Assembly (NCBI GenBank): GCA_016186485.1 | Contig: JACPLN010000005.1 | Location: 105,256 to 169,255 of the forward strand | Reading direction: 5' to 3' | Length of the DNA stretch: 64,000 nucleotides | Origin: Candidatus Nealsonbacteria bacterium | GTDB lineage: Bacteria > Patescibacteriota > Minisyncoccia > Minisyncoccales > UBA6532 | In this document: positions 30,401 through 55,517 of the stretch, piece after piece | Layout of the letters: every line of letters begins with the position of its first letter | Numbering within the stretch: the stretch's first letter is position 1 | Made by a program: the position numbers and the translations under genes | Notes under the pieces: generated by a model | Database searches by the model: none | What the model was told of the DNA's origin: nothing | Seen by the model: only the letters and a program-made list of their open reading frames with translations

Positions 30401-33400
30401 GATGCCGATCCCAACAAGACATTTGCTCACAGGGATATTAATGGCCCGGGAACAGGCACGGTTACCATTGCCTCGGTTTCAGTTTCCGGCCAGACAGTTA
30501 CAGTAACTCTGGGTACTACCGGCACTCAAGCCCCAGACTTTATTCATTTGGAATTGGATAATATCAAGAATCCGACCACCCCTACCCAAAGCGGCTATAA
30601 GGTCAGCATCCAGACCCAGAAAGCTGACAGTACGGCCCTGGAATCTTTCACCTCAATGCCCTTCTTTATAACGCCAAAAGGGAAATACGTTATTATAGGC
30701 CATGTTACAGCAACAGATGTTGGGCTTAACGGAGTTCAGGTATTTGGCGGTTCTCCTTCAACCGGGCCTTTGTTTGCCAATTCCAGCAACAGCGCTTTCG
30801 GTTCTTCCACTGACGGCGAATTTAAAATTGAGGGATTAAATGCCGGAGACGTGATGTTAATGACAGAGCAGTCTATCACAATAGGCGCTGATGAATATAT
30901 AGCTTCTTTCCCGGAGCCCATCCATTTGGATGATAGCACCACTAATAATAATTCCGGAGCCGCCAAAGGTGGATTGACCGGCTGCACAAGCACCACCGCT
31001 TGTTATGGTTACAAAAAGATTACTCTGACTAGAGTGGCAGCGGGCACAACCCCGGGTTTAGTGGTTTATATTTACGGCAATTTTGCTACCACTACCGGGG
31101 CTGGTTATGCCACCATTGATATTTTTGCCGGCGGACAAAACGGTTTTAAAGTGAAAGAGGTGTCACTAAACGGCGATTATAGTTCTACTCCTTATTCCAC
31201 TTTGTTGAGTTTGCCTAATACCGGCAGCTATTTTGTCGGCATAGGGCCTGCTATGCCAAAAACAATGGGCAAGTCAGCTCCTCCAATGCCGACTACCTGG
31301 ATGCCGCCAAAACCGGTAAACGTCAATGTTTCTGGGTCTGGCGGAACTTGGACTTGGGTGGAATCTGACTCAGCCTCAACAGGGACATCAACCGCTGACG
31401 GCTTGGTAAAGTTTACTATTGTTTCAGCCAACAAAACCATTTCCGGCCACGTTTACGACACTTCCGGCAACGCTGTTACCAATGCCCAAGTTTTTGCTTA
31501 TTCTCCGAATGGTTCCTTTGGAAACAGCACGTATGTCGGGCAAAACGGATCATTTAGCCTTCAGGTTAGCACCGGATTTTACAAAATCGGCGCATTCTTG
31601 CCAGGCGCTCCTCCGACAAACGAAATCGGGGTGGAAGTTAAATCCAGTGCCGTTCTTGTTGATGGAATTACCACCACAGACGTTATCTTAAAGATTAGTA
31701 AGGACATACAGTCAGGCTATACTATTTCGGGCACTGTCTATTCGGACACAAGCTCCCAGTATCCGGCCTCAGACGCTTCTGTGTATGCTTACAGAACGGA
31801 TGGCCCGGGCAACACCGAAACAATGACGGATTCCAAAGGAACTTATACCCTTTATGTTGGTATCGGTACCTGGAAAGTGGGGGTTTTCCTTCCTTCTCAC
31901 GGAAAACTTACCGAACAGACGGTCAGTGTTTCTCCGTCAAAATCAGGCCTTAAGTTTACTCCGGATACAACGACCAATTATGTCACCATTAGAGAGAGGG
32001 TTTGGGAAGATCAGAATGACGACGGCGTTGTTGATTCTGGAGAAGGAATTGCCAAGGCGACAGTAACCTTTGTCGCCACCAGCACGGCCTATGTCAACAC
32101 GGCTGTTACCGATTCCAGCGGCGTTTATGAAATTAAGGTTCCCGCTACCACTACTTACGATATTTATGTTTGGTCGCCGGATATTGGCAATTTAGCGCCT
32201 CAAAAGAATACCATAGTTACCAGCACCAACATTATTTACACTTCTTTTTCTGACTATGCTGACATGAGAACGGAAAAAGCCACCACTGTTGAGTTTGGAA
32301 TATATGATTCCAACAATGTGGCTACAACCGTTGATAAATTACTTATTCAATTGGACAGGATAGGCGTGTTCGGGGTGAGCAACGACGTTTATAAAGAGAA
32401 AGTTGCCACTACTACTATTAGGGTTGCCACTAGTACCAGACCTTATATTCTGGATGCTAGAATAGAAGGCATTCCCAAGGGTTTGCTGACCTTTACTACT
32501 TTTGATGCCAATACCGCTTTAACAACCACGACAGTTGGCACCAAGAGATTTGCCACAACTACCGTTAATGATTATGAGAAGATAAAGATACTTCTGCCGC
32601 CGGTTAGCTATGTTTCTGGCCAGGTTAGAGACGATAGCGGCAATGGTATTTCCAATGCTGTCTTGCACATTGAACAGCCGGGAACCGATGTTGAGTTTGA
32701 TGTTGATACTGACAGTTCAGGCAACTATTCTTTCAGAGTGGCCTCAAGTACTACTCCTTACCTAATACAGGCAAACGTTTCAGGATATATAGATTCAGCT
32801 GATTCAGTTTATGCTTCAAGTACGTCTTTAACCTATAACCCGAGCGTCAAGAAAGCAAACTTTACAATTTCAGGACAGGTTACTATTAATGGGTCGGCTC
32901 CTTCCGGCACAAGCGTGTATGTTTGGGCGGAGAAGCTGGGCGGCGGATACGGGGCCACTGCCAAGGGAGATCCTTCTACAGGCGCCTACACTTTGTCTAT
33001 TACCGAAGGAAGTTGGGAGGTTGCTGCTTCCGCCGAAGGTTATTCGGCTTTAACTAAACCGGTTATTGTTGATGTTTCAGGAAACAATGTTTCTGGCATA
33101 GGCTTTGATATCGCTTCTGAAGCAACGACCCAAAAACCGCAGAACTTGAGCATGGCAGGAAATGTCGGAGGCACTGTTACCAACAAGGATTCCGGTTTTG
33201 AAATGTCAGTTCCGACGGGTACCATTTCTGCCTCAGACTCAAGCTCATACAATGTAAAGGAGAAAGAAGTTTCCAACATCCCGACCTATACTCCAACTGG
33301 TAATTTGGTCGGTAACACAGCAGAAGAGGTTTCTGCTTATAAGATGTCGGGGTCAGGAGGAAATGTCAGCACTGTTTCCGGGTTGAATGGTTCCGCGTTT

Positions 33401-34552
33401 GTTGATAAGACATTCACGGTAGCCCAATTGGCAACCGAGGGTATTACTACGACTGACCAGGCAGAAGAGGTAAAGATGGGAAGTTATGATACTTCCGCTC
33501 AAAACTGGACAATGATGCCAACTACAATTACTTATCTAAACAACGCCGACCAACCCATTGTGCCTACTTCAACAAATCTTTCGTTGGGCATTTCCAAAGT
33601 CGTCTTTAACGGCGTAACCAAGCACTTTTCAACCTTCGGTGTGATTAATTCTAAGTTTGACGGACTGGCTCCTTCAGCTCCCACTGGGGTTGCGGTAACA
33701 GTTTCCGGCAACCAGGCAACTGTTTCTTGGAACGCGGTTACTACAAATGCCGATGGCACTGCTGCCGGTGATCTGCAAAAGTATGCAATCTATAGGTCTT
33801 CAGGATCATCCGGTCCCTGGACAAAGATTACTACCGTACCGGTTGGCACCACTTCTTATACAGATACTTTGCCTTCAGGAGGTACTTCCTACTACAAAGT
33901 AACGGCTGATACCGGTTTGCAGTCTGATTTCTCAGGTTCTTCTGGCGGCGTCAGCCCTTCAAGCGGCGGATCAGAAAATATAGTTTCTACTCCTTCTTCT
34001 GGGGGCGGCGGGGTATCAACCCCTCCTCCGGCCTCTCCAGCCGCTCCTTCAGTTCCACCAGAAACGCCAAAGAAAATAGCTGAGGCTCCGGCAGCCCCAA
34101 AAGCAGAAGTAAAAGCCGAGAAAAAGCTTACCGTGACCTTTGACAAGCCAATCAGCAAGATGACAAAAGCAGAGATTCAGGTAAAAATAGCCGAAATTCT
34201 GGAGGTGATTAATAATTTGAAAGAAATGATTAAAGAGGTCGCAACATCTGTTATTGAAGGGATTCCTTCTGGATTCAAGTTTGAAAGGACTATAAAGCCA
34301 GGATCCGCAAGCGATGATGTAAAGTACATCCAGATTATTTTGAATTCTGACCCAGACACAAGAATATCGGGATCAGGCGCCGGCTCTCCGGGTAAAGAAA
34401 CGAATTACTTTGGATCCATAACCAAAGCCGCATTAATCAAATTCCAAGAAAAGTACGCTTCCAAGATTTTGGCTCCTTGGGGATTGATTAAAGGGACGGG
34501 AACTCTTGGAAATAACACTAGGGATAAATTGAACGAGATTATTGGTAAATAA
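27452..34552 (+). CDS. Giant (2366 aa) cell-surface protein: signal/anchor, Ig-like (SbsA/Big_5-like) domains, CarboxypepD_reg-like repeats, FN3, C-terminal peptidoglycan-binding domain
   Basis: N-terminal hydrophobic segment. Repeated ISG.V.D..G..V.NA.V.. motifs. FN3-like APSAPTGVAVTVSGNQATVSWNAV...YAIYRSS. C-terminal PG_binding_1-like DDVKYIQIILN...GSITKAALIKFQEKY. Thr/Ser/Gly-rich. Confidence 0.8.
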   Translation: MPYKSISRFFKKVAVFFIAIVTIFGVTNPFLFLPKIVFAQDTVPPNINHWSAWQADGDAVVTTTLYVHAFVGDNTATPGSTLVVSALSKSAGWGGFSSSTCYAEYSDTNQFRCPIGIQGGSDARTFNYYLEAFDGENKSWRSWATDTNSLNNAKNYPFQTTVYNAPSWTNGISAEVTDGRHYNFSRGIQVATSTLYISSTTDSTANLAVNDWIILKSTTGASEPKVKILAINGFGQTATEYEVQISGYTPHNFTTSDYVNEFVDNALVFIDGTTAYATTTAVQATTTFGAISLYNVPNGSFDVTAFKQGYTEHRITNVYLSGTSTSTLRFVLPFGGFQGGANLGGTSVSWSAPSNGMTGAPANIGIAQQPILVAFSGNASSTTISKNNITLKVANPDGTFTAFSGYYNVAYEAQGTNVSIGGTNYDFGPDAKAIVYSSTTLATSTGYVVRLNNNVKDANNSPINGNDPQGGHTVFFSTSGGFFSGGAGITVGNFGSGGSFMPPFALNVMPNSGSVNVARNTKIAVQFDQPMSASSLSSNIELKALSSTFQEGDSVTFTAALSDTDKSLLIITPSSNLAASIRYKVKLLGGLQSSSGVSMAPPGSASTKMFEFEFTTGSLTDSAAPTILAAGLDRFLVGSTYTGVPVSGILKVSFSESIDPTTVNASNVYLRRKGSTSNISGDVKYDIMEGKVLLAPSTALNATTTYILTLTGYIKDLTGAQNALATTTYEFTTGGVDVTGPALSFFNADDYSLSLTFDEPMNSAAITDTNTWPSGSTKWQTSVLNPSNYIVYVDDGAPTTGAFAKYFNVDSLASSSAPSVTLTYDSMFKTIKIKGMQLFAGSSGVSSDSSRRGARVWIKNATDISGNVIQANVGPDAEADNFGSNAAGGPVKNSQSTFGQMGPGGGMFAPPSTAGSFTITDFGGKNPAMMGMMPVGIWPMNMMAGATSTYMMDIPVSSGKAIPASGKIVIGPFPDEANVSLVRDADPNKTFAHRDINGPGTGTVTIASVSVSGQTVTVTLGTTGTQAPDFIHLELDNIKNPTTPTQSGYKVSIQTQKADSTALESFTSMPFFITPKGKYVIIGHVTATDVGLNGVQVFGGSPSTGPLFANSSNSAFGSSTDGEFKIEGLNAGDVMLMTEQSITIGADEYIASFPEPIHLDDSTTNNNSGAAKGGLTGCTSTTACYGYKKITLTRVAAGTTPGLVVYIYGNFATTTGAGYATIDIFAGGQNGFKVKEVSLNGDYSSTPYSTLLSLPNTGSYFVGIGPAMPKTMGKSAPPMPTTWMPPKPVNVNVSGSGGTWTWVESDSASTGTSTADGLVKFTIVSANKTISGHVYDTSGNAVTNAQVFAYSPNGSFGNSTYVGQNGSFSLQVSTGFYKIGAFLPGAPPTNEIGVEVKSSAVLVDGITTTDVILKISKDIQSGYTISGTVYSDTSSQYPASDASVYAYRTDGPGNTETMTDSKGTYTLYVGIGTWKVGVFLPSHGKLTEQTVSVSPSKSGLKFTPDTTTNYVTIRERVWEDQNDDGVVDSGEGIAKATVTFVATSTAYVNTAVTDSSGVYEIKVPATTTYDIYVWSPDIGNLAPQKNTIVTSTNIIYTSFSDYADMRTEKATTVEFGIYDSNNVATTVDKLLIQLDRIGVFGVSNDVYKEKVATTTIRVATSTRPYILDARIEGIPKGLLTFTTFDANTALTTTTVGTKRFATTTVNDYEKIKILLPPVSYVSGQVRDDSGNGISNAVLHIEQPGTDVEFDVDTDSSGNYSFRVASSTTPYLIQANVSGYIDSADSVYASSTSLTYNPSVKKANFTISGQVTINGSAPSGTSVYVWAEKLGGGYGATAKGDPSTGAYTLSITEGSWEVAASAEGYSALTKPVIVDVSGNNVSGIGFDIASEATTQKPQNLSMAGNVGGTVTNKDSGFEMSVPTGTISASDSSSYNVKEKEVSNIPTYTPTGNLVGNTAEEVSAYKMSGSGGNVSTVSGLNGSAFVDKTFTVAQLATEGITTTDQAEEVKMGSYDTSAQNWTMMPTTITYLNNADQPIVPTSTNLSLGISKVVFNGVTKHFSTFGVINSKFDGLAPSAPTGVAVTVSGNQATVSWNAVTTNADGTAAGDLQKYAIYRSSGSSGPWTKITTVPVGTTSYTDTLPSGGTSYYKVTADTGLQSDFSGSSGGVSPSSGGSENIVSTPSSGGGGVSTPPPASPAAPSVPPETPKKIAEAPAAPKAEVKAEKKLTVTFDKPISKMTKAEIQVKIAEILEVINNLKEMIKEVATSVIEGIPSGFKFERTIKPGSASDDVKYIQIILNSDPDTRISGSGAGSPGKETNYFGSITKAALIKFQEKYASKILAPWGLIKGTGTLGNNTRDKLNEIIGK

Positions 34553-36817: not shown

Positions 36818-37489
36818 TTGAACCTTAACAAGTACGTATATCCTAAGGGCTACAAAGTAAAGAACATTACGGAGCAGACCAACATCTTGCGTCAGTTATT
36901 CCCCGGAATAGGCTATGCTGACGAGAGAATAGTCAAAGGACCTTTGCCGGAGGGAGCCGAAGGATGGTTCGCCATCCCGAGGTGGGATAGTATCGCGCAT
37001 ACCTACAACGAGGCGGTGGATAAGGTGCTGAAAATGCTCAAGCAACAGTGCAAAGGCAGGTTCTATAACTACCGCGAGCACCATATAACAGATTGGTTGC
37101 AACAAACCAATAAGGCAATGAAGATGTTCTATAAGATATGGCAAGAGCAGGATGGATACGACATTCTCGTAGTTCCGGCGCAGTTCGGTCTCCGTCATCG
37201 GGGCCTTTCCATTAGGCAGGCTCGGAATGCCATGAATGTCATGGAGTTTGGTTTCGGCGCTTTCGCCGTCGGTATCATGCTATTGATCCATCCCGAGCGG
37301 GAAGTCCAGTGGGAACAGCTCCACGTTCTATGCGCTGGTGACGACTTCAGTATCATCTATGTCGAGTCCTTGCGCGAGCCGTTTTTCGACTTCTACAACG
37401 GCGAGGTAAAGTTCGACAACTGCTTGGAACATAGCTACGACGATCGCTACGGTTCCGCGTCGGGATTTGTCTCGTCCTCCTCCGTATAA
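36818..37489 (+). CDS. Unassigned protein family, paralog A (223 aa, TTG start)
   Basis: TAGGTGA SD-like sequence then TTG. Shares blocks GAEGWFAIPRW, YNEAV, PAQFGLRHRG, HPEREVQWEQLH and C-terminal GSASGFVSSSSV with 38085.. and 55518.. Confidence 0.8.
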   Translation: MNLNKYVYPKGYKVKNITEQTNILRQLFPGIGYADERIVKGPLPEGAEGWFAIPRWDSIAHTYNEAVDKVLKMLKQQCKGRFYNYREHHITDWLQQTNKAMKMFYKIWQEQDGYDILVVPAQFGLRHRGLSIRQARNAMNVMEFGFGAFAVGIMLLIHPEREVQWEQLHVLCAGDDFSIIYVESLREPFFDFYNGEVKFDNCLEHSYDDRYGSASGFVSSSSV

Positions 37490-38084: not shown

Positions 38085-38804
38085 TTGAACCTTGAAAATC
38101 TGATGAGTCCGTTCTTCGCTAACGAAGAAGCGTCGTCCAACTACGGCTATCCGCAAGGGTATGCCGTGAAGCCGATTTCGGAACAGCTCGTGGAGCTTTC
38201 CAAGCACTTCAAAAGCCTCAATAACAGTTCGGTGCTCGCGTGTTCTAATGAGCTTCCGGCTCTGCCCGCTGGCGCGGAAGGCTGGTTCGCCGTTCCGCGA
38301 TGGGAGAAAGTCGCGTCTTCGTACAACGAGGCTGTTAAGAAGGTCCTCTACCTGATCGGCAAGACCCGCAACTTCTACAACTGCCGTAAATACGCACTCG
38401 GCCCGAAGTACCTGCGGCTCTCTGAGCGAACGGCTGTCGCGCTCCAGATGATCTGCGAAAAGCAGAAGGGCGACTTTCTGCTGATCCCGGCGCAGTTCGG
38501 TCTGACCCATCGCGGTCGGTCCGTGCGAAGGGTGCGCGTGGTATACGCTCCCCACGAGTTCGGCCTCGGGTCGTTCATCGCGGGGTGCATGATCCTGTCA
38601 CATCCCGAGCGCCTCGTTCAGTGGGAGCAGTTGCACATTGACTGCCCCGGTGACGAGTATAGTCCTGGCGCCGATGGTCGCTTCGACAGCGCGCCGATCT
38701 TTTTCTTCGTCGACAGCGAGGTCAAGTTCAACGCCTTCTGGGTCAGCCTCGCCCGCGAGCACGATGGCTCCGCGTCGGGATTTGTCTCGTCCTCCTCCGT
38801 ATAA
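38085..38804 (+). CDS. Unassigned protein family, paralog B (239 aa, TTG start), GC-rich core
   Basis: Same conserved blocks and identical C-terminal GSASGFVSSSSV. The interior is strongly diverged from A and C. Confidence 0.8.
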   Translation: MNLENLMSPFFANEEASSNYGYPQGYAVKPISEQLVELSKHFKSLNNSSVLACSNELPALPAGAEGWFAVPRWEKVASSYNEAVKKVLYLIGKTRNFYNCRKYALGPKYLRLSERTAVALQMICEKQKGDFLLIPAQFGLTHRGRSVRRVRVVYAPHEFGLGSFIAGCMILSHPERLVQWEQLHIDCPGDEYSPGADGRFDSAPIFFFVDSEVKFNAFWVSLAREHDGSASGFVSSSSV

Positions 38805-40834: not shown

Positions 40835-43261
40835 ATGTCGCTGCTGGCTAAAATTTTTGGGGATGCCAATGAGAAATATTTGGAAGGTTTGCAGCCATTG
40901 GTTGAGAAAATAAACCAGCTCGAATCCCAATTCGAGTCTTTTTCTGCCGGACAGCTGAAAGAAAAAACAAAAGAGCTCAAAGAGAAATTGGGCGAAGGCG
41001 GAACTTTAACTGACGAGATATTGCCCCCAGCTTTTGCTTTAGTCAGGGAGGCAGCAAAAAGAACTCTTAACCAGCGCCACTTTGACGTCCAGCTAATCGG
41101 AGGAATCGCATTGCATCAGGGTAAAATTGCCGAAATGAAAACCGGCGAAGGAAAAACGCTTACCGCTACCCTCCCTGTTTATTTTAATGCTCTGCAAGGG
41201 CGTGGAGTGCACGTGATAACGGTAAATGATTATCTTGCAAAAAGGGATACGGTATGGATGGGGCAGATATACGATTTTTTGGGGCTGTCGGTGGGGTGCA
41301 TAGTTCATGAGGCGGCATACCTATATGATCAAAATTACCAGCCAAATAATAAAGATAGAGAGAGAGATTTGCTTGGCGGGTTTAAGGTTGTTGAAAGTTA
41401 CTTGAGACCAGTTTCAAGAAAGGAAGCCTATGGCGCAGATATAACCTATGGGACCAATAACGAATTCGGGTTTGATTACTTGAGAGACAATATGGTTTAC
41501 ACCCAAGACCAAATGGTCCAGCGAGGTTTTGATTATGCCATTATTGACGAAGTAGACTCAATTTTAATTGACGAGGCCAGAACTCCTTTGATTATTTCTG
41601 CTCCGGATACAGAATCTTCAAAAATGTATGAAGAATTTGCCAGGATTATTCCTCGGCTTTCAAAAGATATTGATTACGAAATAGATGAAAAAAGAAAATC
41701 CGCCACACTAACAGAGGCCGGGATTAATAAAGTTGAAAAGATCTTGGGAATGAAGGATATTTATCAAGAAAAGGGGATAAGATACCTTCATCATTTAGAG
41801 CAAGCTTTGAGGGCAGAAGTTTTCTTTAAAAAAGACCGAGATTATATTGTTAAAGACGGGGAGGTTATAATAGTTGATGAGTTTACCGGCAGATTGATGG
41901 CGGGGCGCAGGTGGTCTGGCGGCCTTCACCAGGCAGTAGAAGCAAAAGAAGGATTGAGAATACAGCCAGAATCAATAACTCTAGCTTCCATAACCTTTCA
42001 AAACCTATTTCGCATGTACAGCAAATTGGCCGGAATGACCGGGACTGCGGCAACCTCAGGAGAAGAGTTTTCAAAAGTTTATGGGTTGGATGTTGTTGTC
42101 GTCCCGACCGAAAAACAGATGATAAGGCAAGATTTGCCGGATAAGATATATAAGACGAGAGACGGAAAGTTTGTGGCGGCAGCGAGAGAAATTAAAGAAC
42201 GCCACAAAAAAGGCCAACCATTGCTGGTAGGCACTGTTTCTATTGAAAAAAATGAGTACCTAGGAAAGCTTTTGGACAGAGAAGGTGTTCCCCATAATAT
42301 CCTTAATGCAAAAAATCACGAAAAAGAAGGTGAAATTATCGCTCAAGCCGGGAGGCTGGGAGCCGTAACAATTGCTACGAATATGGCAGGCCGCGGCGTT
42401 GATATTATCCTAGCTGGCAATCCCCAGGATCCAGAGGAGGCTAGAAAGGTTCGGGAAACAGGCGGGCTTCATGTTATCGGCACTGAACGCCATGAAGCAA
42501 GGCGTATTGACAACCAGTTGCGGGGAAGGTCTGGCAGGCAGGGGGATCCGGGCTCATCGCAGTTTTTTGTTTCTTTGGAAGATGATTTAATGAGGATTTT
42601 TGGGGGAGAGAAGATTAAAAGATTAATGGAAATGCTGAAGATTCCGGAAGATGAGCCCATTGAAGCAAAATTAATTTCTGGGGTTATAGAGGGCGCTCAA
42701 GCAAAAATTGAAGGAATGAATTTTGATTTAAGAAAGCATCTTTTGGATTTTGACGATGTTTTAAACAAGCATAGAGAAGTGATATACAAAAAAAGGAGAG
42801 AGACGTTAGATAAATCTCAAATATTATTGATTGTCAAAAAGGCGGGATATTCGGAAAGCGATTATGAAAAAAAAGAAAAAGAAGTAGGAGAGGAAAACAT
42901 GAGAAAACTTGAAAAATTCATTCCGCTTAGGGTGATTGACGCTCTTTGGGTTGAACACTTGGAAAATATGGAGCAGTTGAGAGATTCTGTAAGGCTGAGG
43001 GGTTATGGTCAGCAGGATCCTTTGATAGAATACAAGAATGAGGGCCATAGGCTTTTTCAGGGCCTATTGAAAACGCTGGAGCTGTCAATCGCAAACACAA
43101 TAATGAAAGTCGGCGAGGCAAAGGAAGCGTCATATCAATCCCCACCTCCGGTAAAAATTCAGGGCAGCTCGGCCAAAGTTAGCCGTAACGATCCCTGTCC
43201 ATGCGGAGCGAAAAAACCAGACGGTCGCCCAATAAAGTATAAACATTGCCATGGAAAATAA
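40835..43261 (+). CDS. secA: Preprotein translocase ATPase SecA
   Basis: DEAD motor motifs ([38 protein letters not shown]) and C-terminal zinc motif [21 protein letters not shown]. Confidence 0.95.
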
Positions 43262-43583
43262 ACCGCTGAAAAAACTTTTAAGATCTTCTTATCGGAAAGA
43301 GATGTGGAAGAATGCAGAAGAGATTGTGCGAAAGATTGAAAAGGTATTGCCGATTTCTTCAATGTACTTGATGGGAAGTTTTGCATCGAAGAAACGAAGA
43401 CCCGCAGATGTAGATTTTATTGTAATGCTACAAACGCCGGTTAAACGAAAGCATGAAAAGTGGTCACTTGATCTAGTCATCGCACCAGATAATAAACATG
43501 GCAAGGAGTTACTTGAAGATAATAAAAAGTGGATGAAGCAGAAATATGGTGCAAAAAAGTCAGAGGTTATGCGGTATCGGTAA
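43251..43583 (+). CDS. Minimal nucleotidyltransferase-domain protein (MNT-like)
   Basis: The [17 protein letters not shown] pattern is G-S...D-x-D. Its start overlaps the secA stop by 11 nt. Confidence 0.6.
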
Positions 43584-43605
43584 GAAATATAAGAGATGTC
43601 ATGAG
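43570..43605 (+). pseudogene. Relic of a SecA C-terminal zinc-finger ([12 protein letters not shown]) in a frame unrelated to neighbours
   Basis: TGC GGT ATC GGT AAG AAA TAT AAG AGA TGT CAT GAG matches the canonical SecA tail C-G-x-G-K-K-Y-K-x-C-H. The first Cys pair of the motif is missing. Confidence 0.55.
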
Positions 43606-43614
43606 ACGCAGGGA

Positions 43615-44379
43615 TTAAGAAAGAATCCCAAAAGAGATCAAAATTGTTCTTAGGCTCAAAATAATTATTGATATCCCAACCGAAATACCTACTATTTTCT
43701 CCGGTAATTTATTGGTCAATAAAGCCGCGATTGGAGCCGCTATAATGCCTCCGAGCAGGAGCGGAAAAACAATTTTCCAGTCAATTGCCCTTAATGACAA
43801 AAGAAAAGTCGCAGAGATAGATAACGTTATGAAGAACTCGGCGGCATTTACTGAGCCTATCGTCTTTTTCGGATCACCATTGCCGGCAATCAGGGTTGGA
43901 GTGGTAATTGGACCCCAGCCCCCGCCGCCAATAGCATCAATAAAAGCGGCAATGAATCCCAGCGGCATTAGTTTTCTGATCCTGGGTACGTCGTAAGTAT
44001 GTTTTAGGGGATCATTCTTGTTTAAAAATTTTACGATTATAAGGAATCCTAAGAACAATAAGACAAATGAAATAGCCGGTCTTAAAAAAAATAAATTTTG
44101 AGCGCGAACGGCCACATAGGCTCCAAAAACGCCGCCAATAATACCTGGGATTGCCAAGAATTTAAAAATCTTTTTATCAAAATTACCGATTCTAAAGTGG
44201 GAAGATCCGGAAACCAGAGACGTAAAGACTTCCGAGAAATGAACAACAGCGCTTGACATGGCTGTTCCCACTCCTATTGAAAGCAGCATGGTTGTAAGCG
44301 AAACGCCGTAACCCATGCCGATCCCGCCATCAATAAGCTCGGCTATAAAAGCAAATAGTAGAAAAATAAAATATAGCAT
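43615..44379 (-). CDS. TauE/SafE family anion exporter
   Basis: Polytopic protein with a duplicated 4-TM pattern and IGGGGWGPITTP. Confidence 0.65.
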   Translation of the reverse strand: MLYFIFLLFAFIAELIDGGIGMGYGVSLTTMLLSIGVGTAMSSAVVHFSEVFTSLVSGSSHFRIGNFDKKIFKFLAIPGIIGGVFGAYVAVRAQNLFFLRPAISFVLLFLGFLIIVKFLNKNDPLKHTYDVPRIRKLMPLGFIAAFIDAIGGGGWGPITTPTLIAGNGDPKKTIGSVNAAEFFITLSISATFLLSLRAIDWKIVFPLLLGGIIAAPIAALLTNKLPEKIVGISVGISIIILSLRTILISFGILS

Positions 44380-44420
44380 ATGCTAAATACAGCATAACAA
44401 ATACCGCGCGATAAAAAAAC

Positions 44421-44687
44421 ATGGCAATTATTAAGAAAAAAATTTGGCCGAAATACTTTGATGCCGTAGCTTCAGGAAAGAAAAAGTATGAGTTTCGCCT
44501 TGATGATTTTGAAATAGAAGAAGGAGATGCAATGCTTCTTGAAGAATGGGATCCAAAGACAGGAGAGTATACCGGCAGATCAATTAAAAAAAATGTTACC
44601 TATATTTGGAGATTCAAGACAGATAAGATTTTTTGGCCAGAAGAAGAAATTAAAGAAAAAGGCATCCAGATTATTTCAATTGAATGA
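44421..44687 (+). CDS. ASCH-like (DUF3850-type) small protein
   Basis: KKYEFRLDDFEIEEGDAMLLEEWDPKTGEYTGR pattern. Confidence 0.55.
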   Translation: MAIIKKKIWPKYFDAVASGKKKYEFRLDDFEIEEGDAMLLEEWDPKTGEYTGRSIKKNVTYIWRFKTDKIFWPEEEIKEKGIQIISIE

Positions 44688-44695
44688 AATAACTT

Positions 44696-45172
44696 ATGGA
44701 AAACAAGACAAAGAAAATTTTGACGCTTTGCATTGTGCACAATCATTCCAAGGTTTTGCTTGGCATTAAAAAACGCGGTTTTGGAAGCGGTAAGTGGAAT
44801 GGTTTTGGCGGAAAGATTGAGAAGGGAGAGAGCATAAAGGAGGCTGCGTTAAGAGAATTAAAAGAAGAAACGGGTTTGGTTGGTAAAGACATCAATAATT
44901 TGGGCGTGCTGGATTTTGAGTTTTTGGGAAACCCGGAAATTTTGGAAGTCCATGTTTTTAAAGCCGCAGATCTAAAAGGGGAGCCAAAAGAAACAGAAGA
45001 GATGGCGCCAAAATGGTTTAATATCAATGAAGTTCCCTTTGATTTAATGTGGCCGGATGATAAGTATTGGTTTCCTTTGTTTTTGAGCGATAAAAAGTTC
45101 CGAGGCAAATTTCTCTTTGAAGGCCAAGATAAAATTATTGAAATGGACCTGAAAGAGGTAAAAGAGATATAA
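44696..45172 (+). CDS. NUDIX hydrolase (MutT/MTH1-like)
   Basis: Nudix box GGKIEKGESIKEAALRELKEETGL. Confidence 0.8.
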   Translation: MENKTKKILTLCIVHNHSKVLLGIKKRGFGSGKWNGFGGKIEKGESIKEAALRELKEETGLVGKDINNLGVLDFEFLGNPEILEVHVFKAADLKGEPKETEEMAPKWFNINEVPFDLMWPDDKYWFPLFLSDKKFRGKFLFEGQDKIIEMDLKEVKEI

Positions 45173-45205
45173 ACAAAAGCTCGGGGCGTTCCCGAGGCTT
45201 AATTA

Positions 45206-45739
45206 TTAACGATTGTTATTTGACGGTTCGTCTATCCAGTTTAAGATCTTTTTTAGATAGAAAATGAATGCTATTGCCAGCCCTATCATCATCATCAATG
45301 ACGATATCCAGCTGAATGTTTCTGTTATCCCTCCGAATTTATAAAGCAGAAGTTCTGTGGGCGCGTAGAAAAGATTTGTATAAATAGTGGCGCTTGCCGC
45401 CGATTCAACATAGATATCTTGTTTTGTTTTGGTAAGCCAAGGAGGAAGCCAGAAGAAGACGAAAAAGAATAGGGCTGTTATAACTCCGCCAGCCGGATAC
45501 ATTAACCATAGGTGATCTGGATTTGGAGGCATCTTGGTAACTGTCATACTGCCAAAGAGAAGGGTGGCGTCATAAGATATTATTCCGTCTCCGCCTAAAA
45601 TTTTGACCATCATAAGATGTCCTGCCTCGTGGACGGTAATTCCAAGGACGGTGAATCCAATCAGCATTAAAATCCAGGCAGACATTTTTCTTGTTTGATT
45701 TACCCCGTTATACTCATTATTATTTGTTTCTTTTGTCAA
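45206..45739 (-). CDS. Membrane protein with HExxH motif (putative zinc metalloprotease)
   Basis: VHEAGHLMMV lies within or next to TM helices. The start is TTG as drawn, or the internal ATG (MSAWIL). Confidence 0.4.
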   Translation of the reverse strand: MTKETNNNEYNGVNQTRKMSAWILMLIGFTVLGITVHEAGHLMMVKILGGDGIISYDATLLFGSMTVTKMPPNPDHLWLMYPAGGVITALFFFVFFWLPPWLTKTKQDIYVESAASATIYTNLFYAPTELLLYKFGGITETFSWISSLMMMIGLAIAFIFYLKKILNWIDEPSNNNR

Positions 45740-45756
45740 CGATCAACCACCGCTTA

Positions 45757-45784
45757 ATTATACAAAATTTCTATAATTTGTCAA
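45757..45784 (-). promoter_or_regulatory. Consensus promoter for the minus-strand gene 45206..45739
   Basis: The minus strand reads TTGACA (45784-45779), 16 nt, TATAAT (45762-45757). Confidence 0.6.
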
Positions 45785-45787
45785 TAT

Positions 45788-45816
45788 TTGACTTTTATGC
45801 TTTTCCGTCTGATAAT
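45788..45816 (+). promoter_or_regulatory. Promoter for secDF
   Basis: TTGACT (45788-45793), 17 nt, GATAAT (45811-45816). Confidence 0.5.
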
Positions 45817-45849
45817 TAAAAAAGCGCATAAAAACATAAGGTCATTATC

Positions 45850-47235
45850 ATGAAGAGGAATAATTTCTACATAATATTGATTGCCATCCTGACTTTTTTT
45901 GCTTTGAATTTCAGCTATCCCGCATATTTAAATCTTGGAATAGACCGGCTGAATTCAAGGCTTTCCACAAGCTTTCCTCATTTTTGGGATGTGCCTTTTA
46001 GGTTGGGGCTTGACCTCCGGGGCGGAATCCATCTCTTATATGAAGCAGATTTGTCAAAAATTGAAAAAAAAGACCATCAATCCGCGATGCAGGGTTTAAG
46101 AGATGTCATAGAAAGGAGAGTTAATATTTTCGGAGTCAAAGAACCGTCGGTTCAGGTCCAACAGGAGGGGGAGAGATATAGATTGATAGTGGAGTTAGCC
46201 GGAGTCATGGATCCCGCAGAAGCAATAAAAATGATTGGCGAAACCCCGTTTTTAGAGTTTAGAGAAAAGAGATTAGAAGACGAAACTAAAAAGATTATTG
46301 ATATTCAGAAAGCGGCAGAGGGAAAAACGATGGAAGAAGTTCAAAAAAGCGAAAACTGGCAGATGGTTTTAGAAGATCCTTATTTTAAGCCCACCCAGTT
46401 GACAGGAAGGTTTTTAGCCAAAGCCGAATTAAATTTTGATCAAACTACTTATCAGCCAATCGTTTCTTTGCAGTTTAACAGCGAAGGAGCCGAAATATTT
46501 AAAGAATTAACTTCAAAAAATATCGGCAAACCCATAGCGATTTACGTTGATAACTCCTTAATTTCAGCGCCGGTAGTCCAGGAAGTTATATCGGGGGGCA
46601 AGGCCCAGATTACCGGCCGTTTTACCGTTGAAGAAGCTAAGAAATTAGCCCAAAATTTGAGCGCTGGGGCTTTGCCTTTGCCAATTAAGATAATTTCTCA
46701 ACAGAATGTTGGGCCAACCTTGGGTAAAGAATCCCTTGATCAGTCGTTAAGGGCCGGCATATTCGGTTTCTTGGCAATCATTTTATTCCTGATTGTTTTC
46801 TACAGATTGCCAGGATTTTTGGCGTCTTTGGCATTGCTTATTTATATTGCACTAGTTCTAACTATCTTTAAATTTGTTTCCGTTACCTTAACGCTTGCCG
46901 GCATTGCTGGTTTTATTCTTTCTATAGGCATGGCAATTGACGCCAATGTCTTAGTTTTTTCCAGGCTTCGCGAAGAATTGAAAGAAGGCAAGGATTTTTC
47001 CCTCGCTCTGTCTGAAGGATTTAGCAGGGCTTGGCCCTCAATCCGTGACGGAAACATAACTACCATCCTTGTGGGCATTATTCTTTTTTTCTTTGGAACA
47101 GGTTTTGTCCAGGGGTTTGCCCTGACTCTGGTTTTAGGCAACATTATCAGCATATTTTCCGCAGTCTTTATTACAAAGGTTTTTCTTGAGATGTTTATCG
47201 GAAGTAAGTTGGGAAAAATACCTTTCTTATGGTGA
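45850..47235 (+). CDS. secD: Protein translocase subunit SecD
   Basis: LGLDLRGGIHL, a periplasmic domain, and a C-terminal 6-TM bundle. Confidence 0.9.
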   Translation: MKRNNFYIILIAILTFFALNFSYPAYLNLGIDRLNSRLSTSFPHFWDVPFRLGLDLRGGIHLLYEADLSKIEKKDHQSAMQGLRDVIERRVNIFGVKEPSVQVQQEGERYRLIVELAGVMDPAEAIKMIGETPFLEFREKRLEDETKKIIDIQKAAEGKTMEEVQKSENWQMVLEDPYFKPTQLTGRFLAKAELNFDQTTYQPIVSLQFNSEGAEIFKELTSKNIGKPIAIYVDNSLISAPVVQEVISGGKAQITGRFTVEEAKKLAQNLSAGALPLPIKIISQQNVGPTLGKESLDQSLRAGIFGFLAIILFLIVFYRLPGFLASLALLIYIALVLTIFKFVSVTLTLAGIAGFILSIGMAIDANVLVFSRLREELKEGKDFSLALSEGFSRAWPSIRDGNITTILVGIILFFFGTGFVQGFALTLVLGNIISIFSAVFITKVFLEMFIGSKLGKIPFLW

Positions 47236-48116
47236 GTTTTATCAGATACAAAAAAGTTTATTATCTTATTTCAGGGATTTTGGCTGTTTCGTCCATAATT
47301 TCTCTTTTGGCCTTTGGTCTGAATTTCGGGATAGATTTCACCGGGGGAAGCATTTTAGAGTTGGATTTTGAACAAAGGCCGGAAAACGCAGTTATTCAAG
47401 AAAAACTCGCATCACAAGACTTGGGAGAAGTGATCGTTCAGCCGACCAAAGAAACAGAAGTTCTTTTGAAGCTTAAAAGCATTGACGAAGACGCGCATCA
47501 AAGAATAATTTCAAGCCTTAACGAAGTTTCGCCCTTAACCGAAAAACGTTTTGAGAGCATAGGGCCGCTGATTGGCAGGGAATTGAGAGAAAAAACAATG
47601 GTTATTGTTATCCTCGCAGTTGTTTTAATGCTAATTTATATTACATTCTCTTTTAGAAGAGTTTCTCGGCCGATTTCCAGCTGGAAATACGGCATAATTT
47701 CCATAGTTGCTCTTTCTTTTGATGTTTTAGTGTCGTTGGGAATATTTTCTTACCTAGGCAAGACCTATAATATTCAGTTTAATCTTCCGATTGTTACCGC
47801 CATATTGACGATTTTGGGTTACACTATAAATGATAAAATAATAGTTTTTGACAGGATTAGGGAAAACCTTTTAAGGTCGCAGGAAGCAAGTTTTGAGCTG
47901 GTGGTTGACAAAAGTTTTGTTCAGGTGCTTTCCCGATCGTTGAGCACCGGAACTTGTACGCTTTTAGTCTTGTTTTTTATACTTTTTCTTGGAGGAGAAA
48001 CCCTTAGGTACTTTGCCCTAACCTTAATTGCTGGAATTCTTATTGGCACATATTCTTCATTATTTTTAGCCGCTCCCTTGCTGGTTAGCTGGCTTAATTT
48101 CAAAAGAAAAATATAA
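47229..48116 (+). CDS. secF: Protein translocase subunit SecF
   Basis: [11 protein letters not shown] and a C-terminal TM bundle. Overlaps secD by 7 nt. Confidence 0.9.
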
Positions 48117-48120
48117 GTTT

Positions 48121-49287
48121 ATGAAAAACTTTCTTTTCACATCGGAGTCAATGACCGAGGGGCATCCCGATAAATTATCGGATCAAATTGCCGACGCCGT
48201 CCTAGATGAAGTTTTAAGGCAAGACAGGTATGGAAGGGTGGCCTGTGAAGTGGCTACGGGTATGGGATATATTATTGTCGGGGGAGAGGTAACAACTAGC
48301 GCCTGGATAAATATAGGGAATTTGGTTAGGTCGGTAGTTAAAGATATTGGGTACGATAAGCCGGAATACGGGTTTGATTGGCATACCGTGGCCGTATTCA
48401 ATACGATCCACGAACAGTCTCCGGATATTGCCAGAGGGGTGAGAAAAACAGGCGCCAAAAAACAGGGGGCGGGGGACCAGGGATTGATGGTGGGGTATGC
48501 TTGCAAAGAAACAAAAGAATTGATGCCTCTTCCAATAACCCTTGCCCACAAGCTTGCCAGAAAACTTGCCGAGGTCCGGAAAAAAAAGATTATGCCCTTT
48601 TTAAGGCCAGACGGGAAAACCCAAGTTACCGTAGAATACAAAGATGGGTTCCCGAAAGCAATAAACAACGTTGTTATTGCGGCCCAGCACGATCCTGGCG
48701 TTTCCAACTCAAAACTGAAAGAGGGGATAATAAAAAAGGTAATTTTTCCTGTCTGCCGGCCGTATTTAAATTCAAAATCCAAGTTTTATATCAATAACAC
48801 CGGGCGTTTTGTAATCGGGGGGCCGGTGGCTGATTGCGGGCAGACAGGAAGAAAAATTATTGCCGATACTTATGGCGGCGCGGCTTCGCACGGAGGAGGA
48901 GCTTTTTCCGGGAAAGATCCGACTAAGGTGGACAGATCCGGGGCTTATATGGCAAGATACGTTGCTAAAAATATTGTTGCAGCGGGCTTGGCAGATAAGT
49001 GCGAGGTTCAAATTGCCTATGTTATCGGAGGAAAAAGCTCCCTTTCTTTATATGTAAACACTTTTAATACCGGGAAAGTAAGCGATGAAAAATTAGCAGA
49101 AATTATTCCAAAAGTATTTGATCTTTCTCCCGGAGGATTAATTGGAGAATTGAATCTTTTAAGGCCAATATACCGTAAAACCTCCTGCTACGGGCATTTC
49201 GGTAGAGAAGAAACCGAGTTTACCTGGGAAAAGACAGATAGGGTTAAGGGCTTGACAAAATTTTGTAATATGCTTAAAATAGAGTAG
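48121..49287 (+). CDS. metK: S-adenosylmethionine synthetase
   Basis: [30 protein letters not shown], and [16 protein letters not shown]. Confidence 0.95.
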
Positions 49288-49291
49288 AAAT

Positions 49292-50284
49292 ATGAAATTA
49301 GCTGACTATAGGAAAATAAGCTTATCTTTGGTTAAAGATTTGCCAGACAAGACAAGAACCGTTTTAGAAAGGCGGTTTGGTTTTGGTTATGCGGAGCCCG
49401 AAACATTAGAGTCTATCGGCAAAATCTTCGGTTTAACCAGAGAAAGAGTAAGGCAGATAGAGGCAGCCGGCCTTAAGAAAACCGCAGAGCTGGCTAAGGA
49501 AAAATACGGCAATATTTTTCAAAGTTTTAGAAACTACCTTAATAAGAACAGCGACGTAAAAAAGGAAGAACTTTTAGTATCGGATTTTTCTTCCCCCGAA
49601 TCTAAAAACTATTTTTTGTTTCTTCTGGCTCTAGGAGAAGAATTCCAAAGGTTTAACGAGAACAATCGTTTTTATGCTTTTTGGGGGGCGGGCTCAAGTT
49701 CGGCAAATCTGGCAAAAAAGGCTGTGGACCAGGCAATAGAAAAACTTGAGAAATCTAAAAAACCTTTTTCCTTGGCTGACTTCGGGGCAATTCCCGAATC
49801 TTATCTTGAGATAACAAAACGCATTGTAAATTTTGAGGGCAAATACGGTCTGCGAGAGTGGCCGGAAGTTAACCCGCGTTTTGTAAAGGATAAAACATAT
49901 TTAGTTTTAAGGAAGGCCGGCAAACCCCTTCATTTTATGGAAGTTACCAGCCTAATTGGAACCTTAGATGCGCCGGGCAGCATTCATAAGAAGGTTAATC
50001 CTCAAACTGTCCATAACGAACTAATTAAGGATCAAAGGTTTGTTTTAGTCGGCAGAGGCACTTATGCTCTAAAAGAGTGGGGCTATTTTGAGGGAACGGT
50101 AAAAGACGTGGTTTTTGCCGTTTTGACCGAAGCGCAGCAGCCCCTGCCTAAATCAGAAATTGTAAAAAGAGCGCTAGCTCAAAGGCAGGTAAAAGCCAAT
50201 ACAATTGCATTAAGCCTCCAAGACGGCAAAGTTTTTGTAAGAGATTCGGGAGGAAATTATTCTCTAAAAGGAAAGTTAGTTTAA
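49292..50284 (+). CDS. DNA-binding protein with N-terminal sigma70 region-4-like HTH and C-terminal HARE-HTH-like domain
   Basis: ETLESIGKIFGLTRERVRQIEAAGLKK is region-4-like. LHFMEV....VHNELIKDQRFVLVGRGTYALKEWGY is HARE-HTH-like. Confidence 0.5.
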   Translation: MKLADYRKISLSLVKDLPDKTRTVLERRFGFGYAEPETLESIGKIFGLTRERVRQIEAAGLKKTAELAKEKYGNIFQSFRNYLNKNSDVKKEELLVSDFSSPESKNYFLFLLALGEEFQRFNENNRFYAFWGAGSSSANLAKKAVDQAIEKLEKSKKPFSLADFGAIPESYLEITKRIVNFEGKYGLREWPEVNPRFVKDKTYLVLRKAGKPLHFMEVTSLIGTLDAPGSIHKKVNPQTVHNELIKDQRFVLVGRGTYALKEWGYFEGTVKDVVFAVLTEAQQPLPKSEIVKRALAQRQVKANTIALSLQDGKVFVRDSGGNYSLKGKLV

Positions 50285-54314: not shown

Positions 54315-55468
54315 TGTCACAAGATATTAAAAACCTGGATAAGGCGGCAAAAAGGATTATAGAGGGCATTAAAAACAAAGAAAGGTTTATACTTTTCGGC
54401 GACGCAGACCCTGACGGCGTGTCTTCAGTTGTTATTTTAAAAGAAACCCTTGAAGCTTTTGGCGCAAAAAGAATAATTGCCTATTTCCCAGACAGGGAGC
54501 AAGACGGCTACGGCCTTAATCAAAAAGCCCTAAGCTACCTTAAAAATAAGGCGCCCGGCATCTTAATAACCCTTGATTGCGGAATAGGGAATTTTAAAGA
54601 AGTAGAAAGAGCAAAGAAAACCGGCTTTTATGTAATAATAGTTGACCATCACAGGCTTACTACGGTTGTTGCAAAACCAAATATTTTGGTGGATCCATTT
54701 CAAGAGGGAGATAACTCAACCTTTAAAGACTTTGCCGCTGGCGGCCTGTCCTTTTTGCTTTCAAAATTAATTTTGAATAAAGCCCATCCTTTATTAAAAG
54801 GGGAACAGGATAGATTTTTAGAATTGGCTGCGCTTGCCACTGTCGCTGACCAGATGAAATTGGAAGACGAAAACGAAAGAATAGTTAGAGAGGGAATTAT
54901 CGCTTTGAGTTACACGAAAAGAAAAGGGCTTATTTTGCTGATTAAGAGAGTTGGTTTTGGAGGGGGCAAAAGCGATGTTATAGAAAAGCTGCTGCCGCCC
55001 TTAAGCGCAGCCGGACCAAAAGGCAACCTTAACGAGGCATACCTGCTTTTAATTGAAAATAATCTAAATAAGGCTAAGAAGATGGTTAATGTTTTGGTTA
55101 AAAAGGCATTAGCCAAAAAAGATAGACAGCAGAGAATATATGCAGAAGTCCTAAATAATATTGAAGATAAAAATGATTCAATAATCTTTGAGGGGAAAAA
55201 TTCTTGGCCCCTGGTTTTACTTGGGGCCGTGGCTTCAAAGTTATGCCAAAAACATAATAAACCAGTTTTTCTTTATAGGCGCGGCAGGAAAGAAAGCCCT
55301 GGTTCTGTAAGAGCTCCAAAGGGCGTAGACAGCGTAAAAGCAATGACTTCTTGCGAAAAACTGCTGGTTACATATGGCGGCCATCCGCCTGCCTCCGGTT
55401 TTAGGGTAAAAAACGAGAACTTGGATAAATTTAAAAGCTGTTTAATTAAGTATTTTGAAGAAAGATAG
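54314..55468 (+). CDS. DHH-family phosphoesterase, RecJ-like (short, 384 aa)
   Basis: GDADPDGVSS, DCGIGN, and VDHHR motifs. Confidence 0.7.
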   Translation: MSQDIKNLDKAAKRIIEGIKNKERFILFGDADPDGVSSVVILKETLEAFGAKRIIAYFPDREQDGYGLNQKALSYLKNKAPGILITLDCGIGNFKEVERAKKTGFYVIIVDHHRLTTVVAKPNILVDPFQEGDNSTFKDFAAGGLSFLLSKLILNKAHPLLKGEQDRFLELAALATVADQMKLEDENERIVREGIIALSYTKRKGLILLIKRVGFGGGKSDVIEKLLPPLSAAGPKGNLNEAYLLLIENNLNKAKKMVNVLVKKALAKKDRQQRIYAEVLNNIEDKNDSIIFEGKNSWPLVLLGAVASKLCQKHNKPVFLYRRGRKESPGSVRAPKGVDSVKAMTSCEKLLVTYGGHPPASGFRVKNENLDKFKSCLIKYFEER

Positions 55469-55473
55469 GTGCC

Positions 55474-55502: not shown

Positions 55503-55517
55503 ATATGCAGAGTAAAA

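Follow-up and report, generated by a model that had tools for sequence, protein, structure and literature searches.

How does the end of one gene come to be repeated behind its neighbor? This question is raised by the secA locus of a 64,000-nucleotide (nt) stretch of DNA from Candidatus Nealsonbacteria bacterium (contig JACPLN010000005.1), which was analysed as a whole and is called the window below. The secA gene ends in the codons of a zinc-finger tail and is followed by an overlapping gene for a minimal nucleotidyltransferase (NTase). At the far end of the NTase gene, 12 codons in a third frame again read like a piece of the SecA tail. An earlier reading made from the sequence alone (the sequence-only reading) proposed that these codons are a relic of the SecA tail, and that the NTase is an accessory gene that had arrived with a substitute terminus for secA. 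On balance, we think it probable that the relic is a copy, now dead, of the final third of the SecA zinc-finger tail, and that C-terminal displacement, in which cassettes accrete at the 3′ ends of genes, left it there.

The SecA tail remnant behind the nucleotidyltransferase gene

Our analysis reproduced the coordinates previously given for the secA tail, the NTase gene, and the relic, including the NTase start 11 nt before the secA stop. Positions are those of the window, and ORF denotes an open reading frame.

40835 to 43261, plus strand: secA, complete, 808 amino acids (aa) (ORF; Pfam SecA_DEAD, SecA_PP_bind, P-loop_SecA, and SecA_SW, E values 1e-43 to 1e-124)
43196 to 43258, plus strand: live zinc-finger tail of SecA, the last codons of secA (stop codon at 43259-43261)
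43201 to 43206, plus strand: ATGCGG, left copy of a 6-nt direct repeat that brackets 43207-43574 (read from the sequence)
43251 to 43261, plus strand: 11-nt overlap of secA and the NTase gene, ATGGAAAATAA, with the NTase ATG in the His-Gly codons of the tail and the secA stop in NTase codons 3-4
43251 to 43583, plus strand: minimal NTase, 110 aa, DUF6932 (Pfam PF22014, E 2.3e-12, 48 bits versus a cut-off of 27)
43569 to 43574, plus strand: ATGCGG, right copy of the direct repeat (read from the sequence), also NTase coding
43570 to 43605, plus strand: relic of the SecA tail, 12 codons, third frame (SecA-tail matrix 34.4 bits; Pfam SEC-C 18.1 bits)
43582 to 43605, plus strand: KKYKRCHE, the NTase-independent part of the relic (25.5 bits), of the canonical short-loop type and holding a cATGa without an ORF
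43615 to 44379, minus strand: convergent TauE/SafE membrane protein gene (ORF; Pfam TauE, E 3.6e-37), whose stop lies 10 nt past the relic

The source genome is a Paceibacteria-like member of the Patescibacteria; the best SecA matches of the window all come from metagenome-assembled genomes of this phylum, at no more than 74% identity. Because two independent public assemblies (L161 and L162 in our numbering of loci) are 100% identical over the region 42706-49583, the layout is not an assembly artefact.

To score candidate tails, we used a 12-column matrix made from 52 distinct SecA tails. Across the six frames of the window the relic yields 34.4 bits, and the sole other site that reaches 10 bits is the live tail (15.0 bits). 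Shuffled sequences give maxima of 14.6 bits (150 dinucleotide shuffles of the whole window) and 12.0 bits (5000 shuffles of 43262-43700). However, the GIGK of the relic corresponds to the NTase codons cGG-TAT-CGG-TAA-g shifted by one base, and the C-terminal xRYR-stop of the NTase is conserved also in homologues with no SecA fragment behind them. Because this conserved Arg-Tyr-Arg-stop is read out of frame, four of the 12 relic codons (CGIG) are not independent. The other eight, KKYKRCHE, score 25.5 bits without a single exceedance, the maxima being 20.9 bits in 100 whole-window shuffles (12.8 million positions) and 15.5 bits in 5000 local shuffles. The proposed 12-codon relic thus holds up as real SEC-C coding DNA, but with only 8 of its 12 codons independent of the NTase frame. 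On these grounds we take 43570-43605, and securely 43582-43605, to be a true vestige of DNA that encoded the SecA zinc finger.

Chance matching in Lys-rich, AT-rich DNA might be suspected here, given that the region is AT-rich, that Lys codons are common, and that four codons come free from the NTase frame. Yet the match lies far above the shuffled background, 1.6 Mb of related loci contain no comparable match upstream or on the opposite strand, and the same fragment is found at the same place in the loci L163 and L168. The shuffles and this recurrence already refute chance, to which we assign practically no weight, and the relic reading stands.

The relic is a gene fragment and not a working SEC-C motif. 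Its match to the Pfam SEC-C model (PF02810) covers positions 7-18 of 19 at 18.1 bits, which is under the gathering score of 20.4. Instead of four zinc ligands, it retains the distal Cys and His plus one proximal Cys that belongs to the NTase frame. As the sequence-only reading had noticed, the relic is nearer to the canonical tail than the live tail is, which matches only SEC-C positions 1-11, and it lacks the first Cys-Pro. It agrees at 8 of 9 residues and 21 of 27 nt (manual count) with the live tail of L001 (GKKYKRCHG), which is among the closest SecA relatives (73% identity). The fragment sits in a 35-codon ORF (43546-43653, third frame of the plus strand), and its own ATG opens only five codons. 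The stop of the convergent TauE gene lies 10 nt beyond the relic, which leaves this ATG without a same-strand gene at present. Over the relic no Rfam family matched, and no promoter or terminator signals were found above the shuffle background. Neither cassette boundary carries inverted repeats (43150-43700); the boundaries are direct repeats of coding sequence. The ATGCGG repeat might represent microhomology at the junctions, a weak indication by itself with the right copy being NTase coding sequence.

The live tail at the C-terminus of SecA has all four zinc ligands (Cys, Cys, Cys, His) in the spacing C-P-C-x14-C-H, with a loop of nine residues versus the usual three. Because this loop is six residues longer, and for no other reason, the tail scores 17.0 bits and falls under the SEC-C cut-off. 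Among the 117 nearest SecA C-termini with a readable motif, the loop has three residues in 70, nine residues of the window type (A-[KT]-x-x-D-G-R-P-x) in 29, and ten residues (KINPxTGKPM or AINPxTGxVY) in 18; the tail of the homologue P0128 is identical to that of the window. The description of the live tail as atypically expanded is therefore not supported for this lineage, and the same loop also occurs in the absence of the NTase. Long-loop tails without an NTase exist in L003, L069, L181, and L182, whereas in L179 the NTase lies behind a canonical SecA tail; for these reasons, the expanded loop did not come with the NTase and is an older trait of this SecA lineage. The tail fragments that accompany the NTase in other genomes are likewise canonical. 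Long-loop variants of the SecA zinc finger are common in the phylum and are missed by Pfam.

The NTase gene begins at a cATGg within the His-Gly codons of the live tail and stops at 43581-43583. In addition to DUF6932, the protein weakly matches Pol-beta NTase families in Pfam. We found 133 homologues, and in an alignment of 40 the Pol-beta-fold motifs G42-S43, D53-x-D55, and D74 are invariant. Also invariant in these 40 are Y14 and R15, and because these residues precede the internal Met18, the alignment supports position 43251, and not Met18, as the probable start. Public gene calls begin at the internal Met (P0003, 93 aa), and an exact look-up of the 110-aa protein found no match since public callers used that Met; gene callers thus mis-start such cassettes. 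Between NTase copies, pN is 0.06-0.17 and pS is saturated at 0.75-0.83, values that indicate purifying selection.

For the NTase, the model of MntA, the antitoxin of MNT-HEPN (type VII) systems, gives 15.8 bits versus a cut-off of 60 (NCBIfam NF047752), and no HEPN partner gene is adjacent in the window, where the neighbors are secA and the convergent TauE gene; in other contexts the neighbors vary. PADLOC returned only weak matches to candidate families (PDC-M63A, 3.5e-8). No sequence relatives were found in the PDB (best E 0.44), and the motif segment aligns weakly to DNA polymerase mu. NTase relatives were not found in viral contigs, nor was any viral or plasmid-like carrier, and a literature search found no papers on DUF6932. 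Two homologues with 60-65% identity (P0051 and P0093) are annotated as coming from DPANN archaea, one from Micrarchaeota and one from Aenigmarchaeota on a 918-kb contig, which suggests exchange of the NTase between two groups of ultra-small cells, the Patescibacteria and DPANN.

Tail fragments and start sites at related loci

We scanned 140 secA loci for tail fragments with an 8-column matrix at a threshold of at least 16 bits. The 448 kb of same-strand sequence downstream of secA yields nine matches, compared with none in 420 kb upstream and none in 1.24 Mb of the opposite strand. Six of these matches represent short, dead pieces of the tail (L020, L025, L030, L036, L069, and L107), which lie behind a Fic/Doc gene in L020, behind a NUDIX gene in L030, behind a gene without a Pfam match that appears MazG-like by eye in L036, and 60 nt behind the live tail in L069. 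The remaining three are complete motifs that end small ORFs (L002, L062, and L120).

Such small ORFs (~60-120 aa) lie 0.5-2.5 kb past secA on the same strand and have a complete SEC-C end, for example IGRNELCFCGSGKKHKKCCM followed by a stop codon. They could be old tails captured by another protein, or stand-alone SEC-C proteins. The SEC-C-ending ORFs are located as follows.

L002: 5413-5619
L062: ~8780-8997
L120: ~5620-5976
L181: ~4270-4460

Some loci carry strings of fragments. In L178, the live tail is followed by fragments at 1807-1842, at 3038-3073, at ~3480-3510 in front of the NTase, and at ~4436, giving four in 4.4 kb. L180 has a fragment before each of its UDG, NUDIX, NTase, and DUF1653 genes, and L168 has three, located before the NTase, behind it, and before a NUDIX gene. 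The fragments also coincide with gene starts. In the window, L003, L030, L107, L178, and L179, the first gene past secA starts in the cATGg of the live tail with the same 11-nt overlap geometry. Displaced fragments in L030 (280 aa), L163, L168, and L180 still hold the ATG of the next gene.

Four long-loop loci share a non-coding layout behind the secA stop, at these positions.

L069: 6840-6940
L163: 230-325
L168: 3945-4010
L181: 3865-3975

In each, the live tail is followed by a spacer of 30-70 nt, with a AAGCGGAGTCCC-like motif and a hairpin, and then by a canonical fragment (GSGKK[YF]KKC[HNR]GK-stop). The spacer motif reads AAGC[GC]GAGTCCC, with the variant AAGCGAAGTCCC in L181, and the arrangement is kept among SecA proteins that are only 51-60% identical. 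The presence of a canonical fragment past the spacer in all four long-loop loci indicates that the long-loop tail had itself pushed a canonical tail aside. The four spacers gave no consensus fold. We rejected a dispersed-repeat reading of GC[CG]GAGTCCC: among secA-tail spacers, those of L069, L163, and L168/L169 alone contain it, and its other matches are scattered and unrelated.

The NTase is absent from all 160 related secA loci, drawn from genomes and metagenomes, and it is therefore accessory and patchily distributed. These NTase-less relatives share the tail type of the window but not its downstream sequence, an outcome that leaves the relic reading intact. Relatives of the NTase occupy at least five genomic contexts.

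Directly behind secA: L163, L168/169, L179
3.4 kb behind secA: L178
Between def and fmt: L175-177
Between RNase J and a tRNA synthetase: L170-174
In front of dinB: L164-167
Behind two NUDIX genes: L180

A piece of the SecA end travels with the NTase gene through these contexts. In L163, L168, L175-177, L178, L179, and L180, the 20-35 nt before and over the NTase ATG read KYKKCHGK-stop in the SecA frame. This 5′ fragment persists even where no secA is nearby, and a recognizable trace of it remains in L170. The N-terminus M-[EG]-[NS]-[KR], as dictated by the tail overlap, is present in ~14 of 120 homologues. A 3′ fragment is found behind the NTase stop in L168 (CGIGKKYNRCHGG, followed by a stop codon) and in L163, whereas it is decayed in L180, where it holds the start of the next gene, and missing in L175, L178, and L179. 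The combination of NTase and 3′ fragment is thus common to the window, L163, L168, and, in decayed form, L180, so that the relic is not required to be the former tail of this very genome, as had been supposed. The proposal of an accessory gene with a substitute terminus is likewise upheld in part: the NTase is accessory and travels with a piece of the SecA end, but the expanded loop is not NTase-borne.

Between the window and L168, SecA is 58% identical and the NTase 83% (range for the NTase, 83-88% protein identity). Recent horizontal transfer of the NTase was considered on the basis of these values and rejected, because synonymous sites are saturated; for the same reason, the high identity of the NTase reflects constraint. 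The 3′ fragments of the window and L168 are alike at 23 of 27 nt (manual count). Given the saturation of synonymous sites in the NTase, a neutral remnant inherited from the common ancestor should be unrecognizable, and the likeness of the fragments may mean that they were inserted separately and recently, that working tails refresh them, or that they are constrained.

Two further observations concern individual contexts. In L164-L167, a 106-aa gene abuts the NTase tightly on its upstream side, and dinB overlaps the last 38 nt of the NTase; the 106-aa gene has no PADLOC match and no Pfam family on record, and together with the NTase it could form a two-gene module. In L175 (2330-2380), the stop codon of def lies inside the travelling SecA fragment (GAT GAA ATA TAA within ATGAAATATAAAAAGTGTCATGG), and the end of def may have been remodelled by insertion of the NTase.

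Other duplicated gene ends in the window

A generic scan for copies of the last 30 residues of each ORF within 2 kb downstream identified two further clear cases in the window, which lends support to the wider notion of the sequence-only reading that an accessory gene brings a replacement terminus along.

12151 to 13623: gatB
13695 to 13973: RelB antitoxin gene behind gatB
13976 to 14236: ParE/YafQ-type toxin gene behind the RelB gene
14244 to 14351: 35-codon intact copy of the GatB C-terminus, GKENALQFLVGQAMAKSRGRANPDKVRQTLLTELR followed by a stop codon
54314 to 55468: DHH/DHHA1 phosphoesterase gene
55455 to 56198: 247-aa gene that overlaps the end of the DHH gene, without a Pfam match
56359 to 56400: copy of the last 14 codons of the DHH gene, KNLEKFRNCMIDYF versus ENLDKFKSCLIKYF in the live gene

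Both gatB ends open with an identical 16-nt core, AAGGCAAAGAAAACGC (13514-13529 and 14242-14257). Past the core, the copies are 61% identical; by codon position, identity is 0.69 at the first, 0.78 at the second, and 0.51 at the third. Because divergence is greatest at third positions, the two ends must have drifted apart while each belonged to a functional gene, in separate lineages. The 247-aa gene behind the DHH gene is one of three paralogues (36818-37489, 38085-38804, and 55455-56198) that share a C-terminal GSASGFVS[SP]SSV; two of the three were compared with Pfam without a match.

Proposed C-terminal displacement and competing explanations

The explanation that we favor starts from the sequence of the tail itself. 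Its Cys-His-Gly codons (tgC-ATG-Gn) offer an ATG 11 nt before the secA stop, at which, in these Patescibacteria, the first downstream gene habitually starts, and the overlap probably couples translation of that gene to secA. A new gene behind secA would then spare both secA and the gene that follows only where two copies of the tail exist, and because of this requirement, viable insertions would bring their own copy of the tail while the old one stays downstream. One copy would close secA and start the newcomer, whereas the older copy would be pushed downstream, often with the start of the former first gene. Repeated events could generate same-strand strings of small accessory genes with a tail fragment before each. 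In the window, the DUF6932 NTase would be the cassette nearest to secA, with its start in the live tail and the displaced fragment just past its stop. Because only five codons are open at the relic ATG, the gene that once used it was presumably lost.

Joining most likely occurs through the conserved SEC-C coding stretch (~20-35 nt), which might serve as homology on one or both sides. DNA that was taken up may integrate by homology-facilitated illegitimate recombination, or the fragments on either side of a cassette may recombine, with the far end joined illegitimately or within a second fragment. The direct fusion of a long-loop tail and the NTase in the window could have arisen by an insertion of its own, or by loss of the DNA between repeats in an ancestor resembling L163. 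The relic may be the former tail of this genome or may have been brought in with the cassette. Directly observed are the arrangement of the repeats and its statistics, its recurrence with a strand bias, and the 5′ fragment that travels with the NTase, whereas the mode of recombination, the sequence of events, and the coupling of translation are deduced from them.

Several observations weigh against C-terminal displacement. Searches of genome representatives, JGI metagenomes, and a set of 5.8 billion proteins, with SecA or its last 299 aa as queries, found no near-isogenic empty site; apart from the same genome, the closest SecA is 74% identical. As a consequence, the pre-insertion state and the junctions are not directly readable. 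Upstream of CPCG, secA shows no visible recombination breakpoint: in sliding identity against 16 relatives the nearest neighbor never switches before this point, and the linker is too variable to say more. The sole flanking identity at the secA locus is the 6-nt ATGCGG, whose right copy doubles as NTase codons. The relic has no gene behind it, and the keeping of a start site for the next gene cannot explain its preservation here. In L163 and L168, the NTase lies behind an extra, non-live fragment, and the simpler layout of the window thus calls either for an insertion independent of theirs or for a deletion between repeats at a later time. Selection for something else could, in principle, also maintain short fragments.

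Other histories can be drawn for the same arrangement. The expanded tail and the NTase might have arrived as one block that displaced the genome's own canonical tail, now decaying at 43570-43605. This history fits the contrast between a long-loop live tail and a short-loop relic (GKKYKRCH), the match of 8 of 9 residues to the live tail of L001, and the occurrence of an expanded live tail with an unexpanded dead copy in L036, L069, L163, L168, and L181. It seems rather improbable, however, when the nine-residue loop is present in 29 of the 117 nearest C-termini and in four NTase-less loci, when the NTase follows a canonical tail in L179 and carries canonical fragments in L163, L168, L175, and L178, and when a canonical fragment separates the expanded tail from the NTase in L163 and L168, so that the two are separable. 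We regard as unlikely, but a little less so, that the NTase is a dedicated mobile cassette whose SEC-C-like ends are attachment sites, with a mostly cassette-borne relic that is kept for movement. Its circular form would join the stop (gGTAAg) and the start (cATGg) through one SEC-C-like site of ~35 nt, and it would enter any SEC-C sequence through RecA at short homology or through a recombinase encoded in trans. The presence of the NTase in at least five contexts agrees with this idea. So does the fact that it is accompanied by the 5′ fragment, and by the 3′ fragment in four loci, across SecA proteins only 58% identical, and that conservation of these fragments far exceeds that of the synonymous sites in the intervening gene. 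The single canonical fragment behind the live tail in L069 and L181 resembles an empty or post-excision site, and an identical core at both ends, as at gatB, is what site-specific or Campbell-type insertion leaves. Nevertheless, no integrase or transposase is present among the called genes of any locus examined, no boundary inverted repeats and no viral or plasmid-like carrier were found, the 3′ fragment is missing in three loci (L175, L178, and L179), and half of the supposed 3′ site is forced by the C-terminal codons of the NTase itself. Moreover, NUDIX, Fic, and UDG cassettes show the same fragments, and nothing is therefore specific to the NTase.

The relic stretch might instead be functional now, either as the small overlapping ORF at 43546-43653 or as an RNA or DNA signal that ends the secA-NTase transcript. 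An ATG-initiated ORF spans the fragment in the window (35 codons), L168 (21), and L163 (20), and 23 of 27 nt are kept despite saturated synonymous divergence next door. We nonetheless give this idea very little credence. The first half of the ORF is dictated by the NTase frame, its length and end vary by genome, only two of the four zinc ligands are left, and the searches for Rfam families and for promoter or terminator signals above shuffles were negative. Furthermore, the fragment is decayed in L180 and absent from L175, L178, and L179.

C-terminal displacement itself has known parallels. In the rhs, CdiA, and MafB polymorphic-toxin loci, it was reportedly described by Jackson and colleagues in 2009. 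The shared features are a constant gene body, a new 3′ end that arrives with one or more extra genes, and an old 3′ end that persists downstream as a same-strand orphan that begins at a short conserved motif boundary, with strings of orphans building up. At the secA loci, orphans have the same polarity (nine downstream on the same strand versus none upstream and none on the opposite strand) and form strings in L178, L180, and L168. Divergence between ends is evident from the gatB duplicate (0.51/0.69/0.78 at third, first, and second positions), whereas the secA relic is too short to compare. In contrast to those loci, the hosts here are essential housekeeping genes (secA, gatB, and the DHH phosphoesterase gene), the displaced piece has 8-35 codons and no function of its own, and the repeat is also the start site of the next gene. 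The cargo is an NTase, NUDIX, Fic, UDG, or RelB/ParE gene, and not a toxin tip with an immunity gene.

The displacement process also has a described precedent in rhs and type VI secretion system loci (2017, PMC5361080). As in that system, a conserved upstream stretch anchors the incoming DNA while the other end joins illegitimately, the newest module lies nearest to the conserved gene with older genes shifted downstream, and there is no integrase. The anchor at secA differs in being very short (a motif stretch of ~20-35 nt), with no breakpoint visible further upstream, and what is retained is a gene terminus with a start site and not an immunity gene. The organisms of the precedent are naturally competent. 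For Patescibacteria, natural competence is inferred from published gene content.

Integrase-bearing elements provide a more distant comparison. Elements that insert into the 3′ ends of genes include e14 and phage 21 in icd, islands in tRNA and tmRNA genes, and streptococcal integrative and conjugative elements in rpsI, guaA, and others. As with e14 and phage 21, the incoming DNA supplies a substitute terminus while the original remains at the far junction, and an identical core can flank the insert (16 nt at gatB). However, the inserts here are 0.35-0.9 kb without an integrase, and the flanking identity at secA is only 6 nt. The secA insert consists of the 110-aa NTase gene alone and contains no integrase. 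Integron arrays are similar in their same-orientation strings of small, apparently promoterless genes with a repeated boundary element, and in the position of the newest cassette nearest to a fixed site. Here, the fixed site is the end of an essential gene, and the boundary is a coding fragment and not an attC-type imperfect palindrome; no attC-type imperfect inverted repeats were found at the cassette boundaries (43150-43700). The called genes of loci L161-L182, to which this search was confined, include no integrase family, of the IntI type or otherwise.

Patescibacteria have tiny genomes with few recognizable mobile elements, and their gain of accessory genes is poorly understood. C-terminal displacement suggests a route in which the 3′ ends of essential genes accumulate new genes one upon another, each insertion duplicating the last few codons. 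This duplication would keep both the essential gene and the start of the next gene whole. More tentatively, Patescibacteria might possess a general integrase-free cassette system at the ends of housekeeping genes, including the SecA zinc finger, the GatB C-terminal helix, and others. The motif stretch would act as recombination site, replacement terminus, and start pad, producing integron-like arrays that are coupled to essential genes and exchanged across the phylum, perhaps also with DPANN archaea; we consider this broader proposal possible but doubtful. What is new here is the combination of displacement with cassette accretion at the ends of essential genes, where the repeat doubles as a start pad, whereas displacement itself was already described. 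Our literature search found no papers that connect SEC-C with Patescibacteria or that describe secA as such a hot spot for insertions. The fragments left in place are scars that can be dated, and mining them in thousands of genomes could reveal the order and rate of gene gain as well as the landing-pad motifs. The fragments could also test short-homology recombination after DNA uptake as the driver.

Two further ORFs of the window are of interest, the first of which relates to secA.

44696 to 45172, plus strand: NUDIX gene starting MENK, ATGGAAAACAAG (Pfam NUDIX, E 2.8e-19)
27452 to 34552, plus strand: largest ORF of the window by far, 2366 aa

MENK is the N-terminus dictated by an ATG within the SecA tail (cATGGAAAATAA). 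NUDIX genes follow secA or the NTase in L030, L163, L168, and L178, and secA-mutT is the gene order in E. coli. The NUDIX gene of the window may be the former first gene past secA, split off by the inverted TauE gene and a DUF3850 gene, which would link it to the relic. The start of this gene was also considered as a decayed tail fragment. This candidate was rejected, since only ATGGAAAAcAAG matches and the 16 nt upstream do not.

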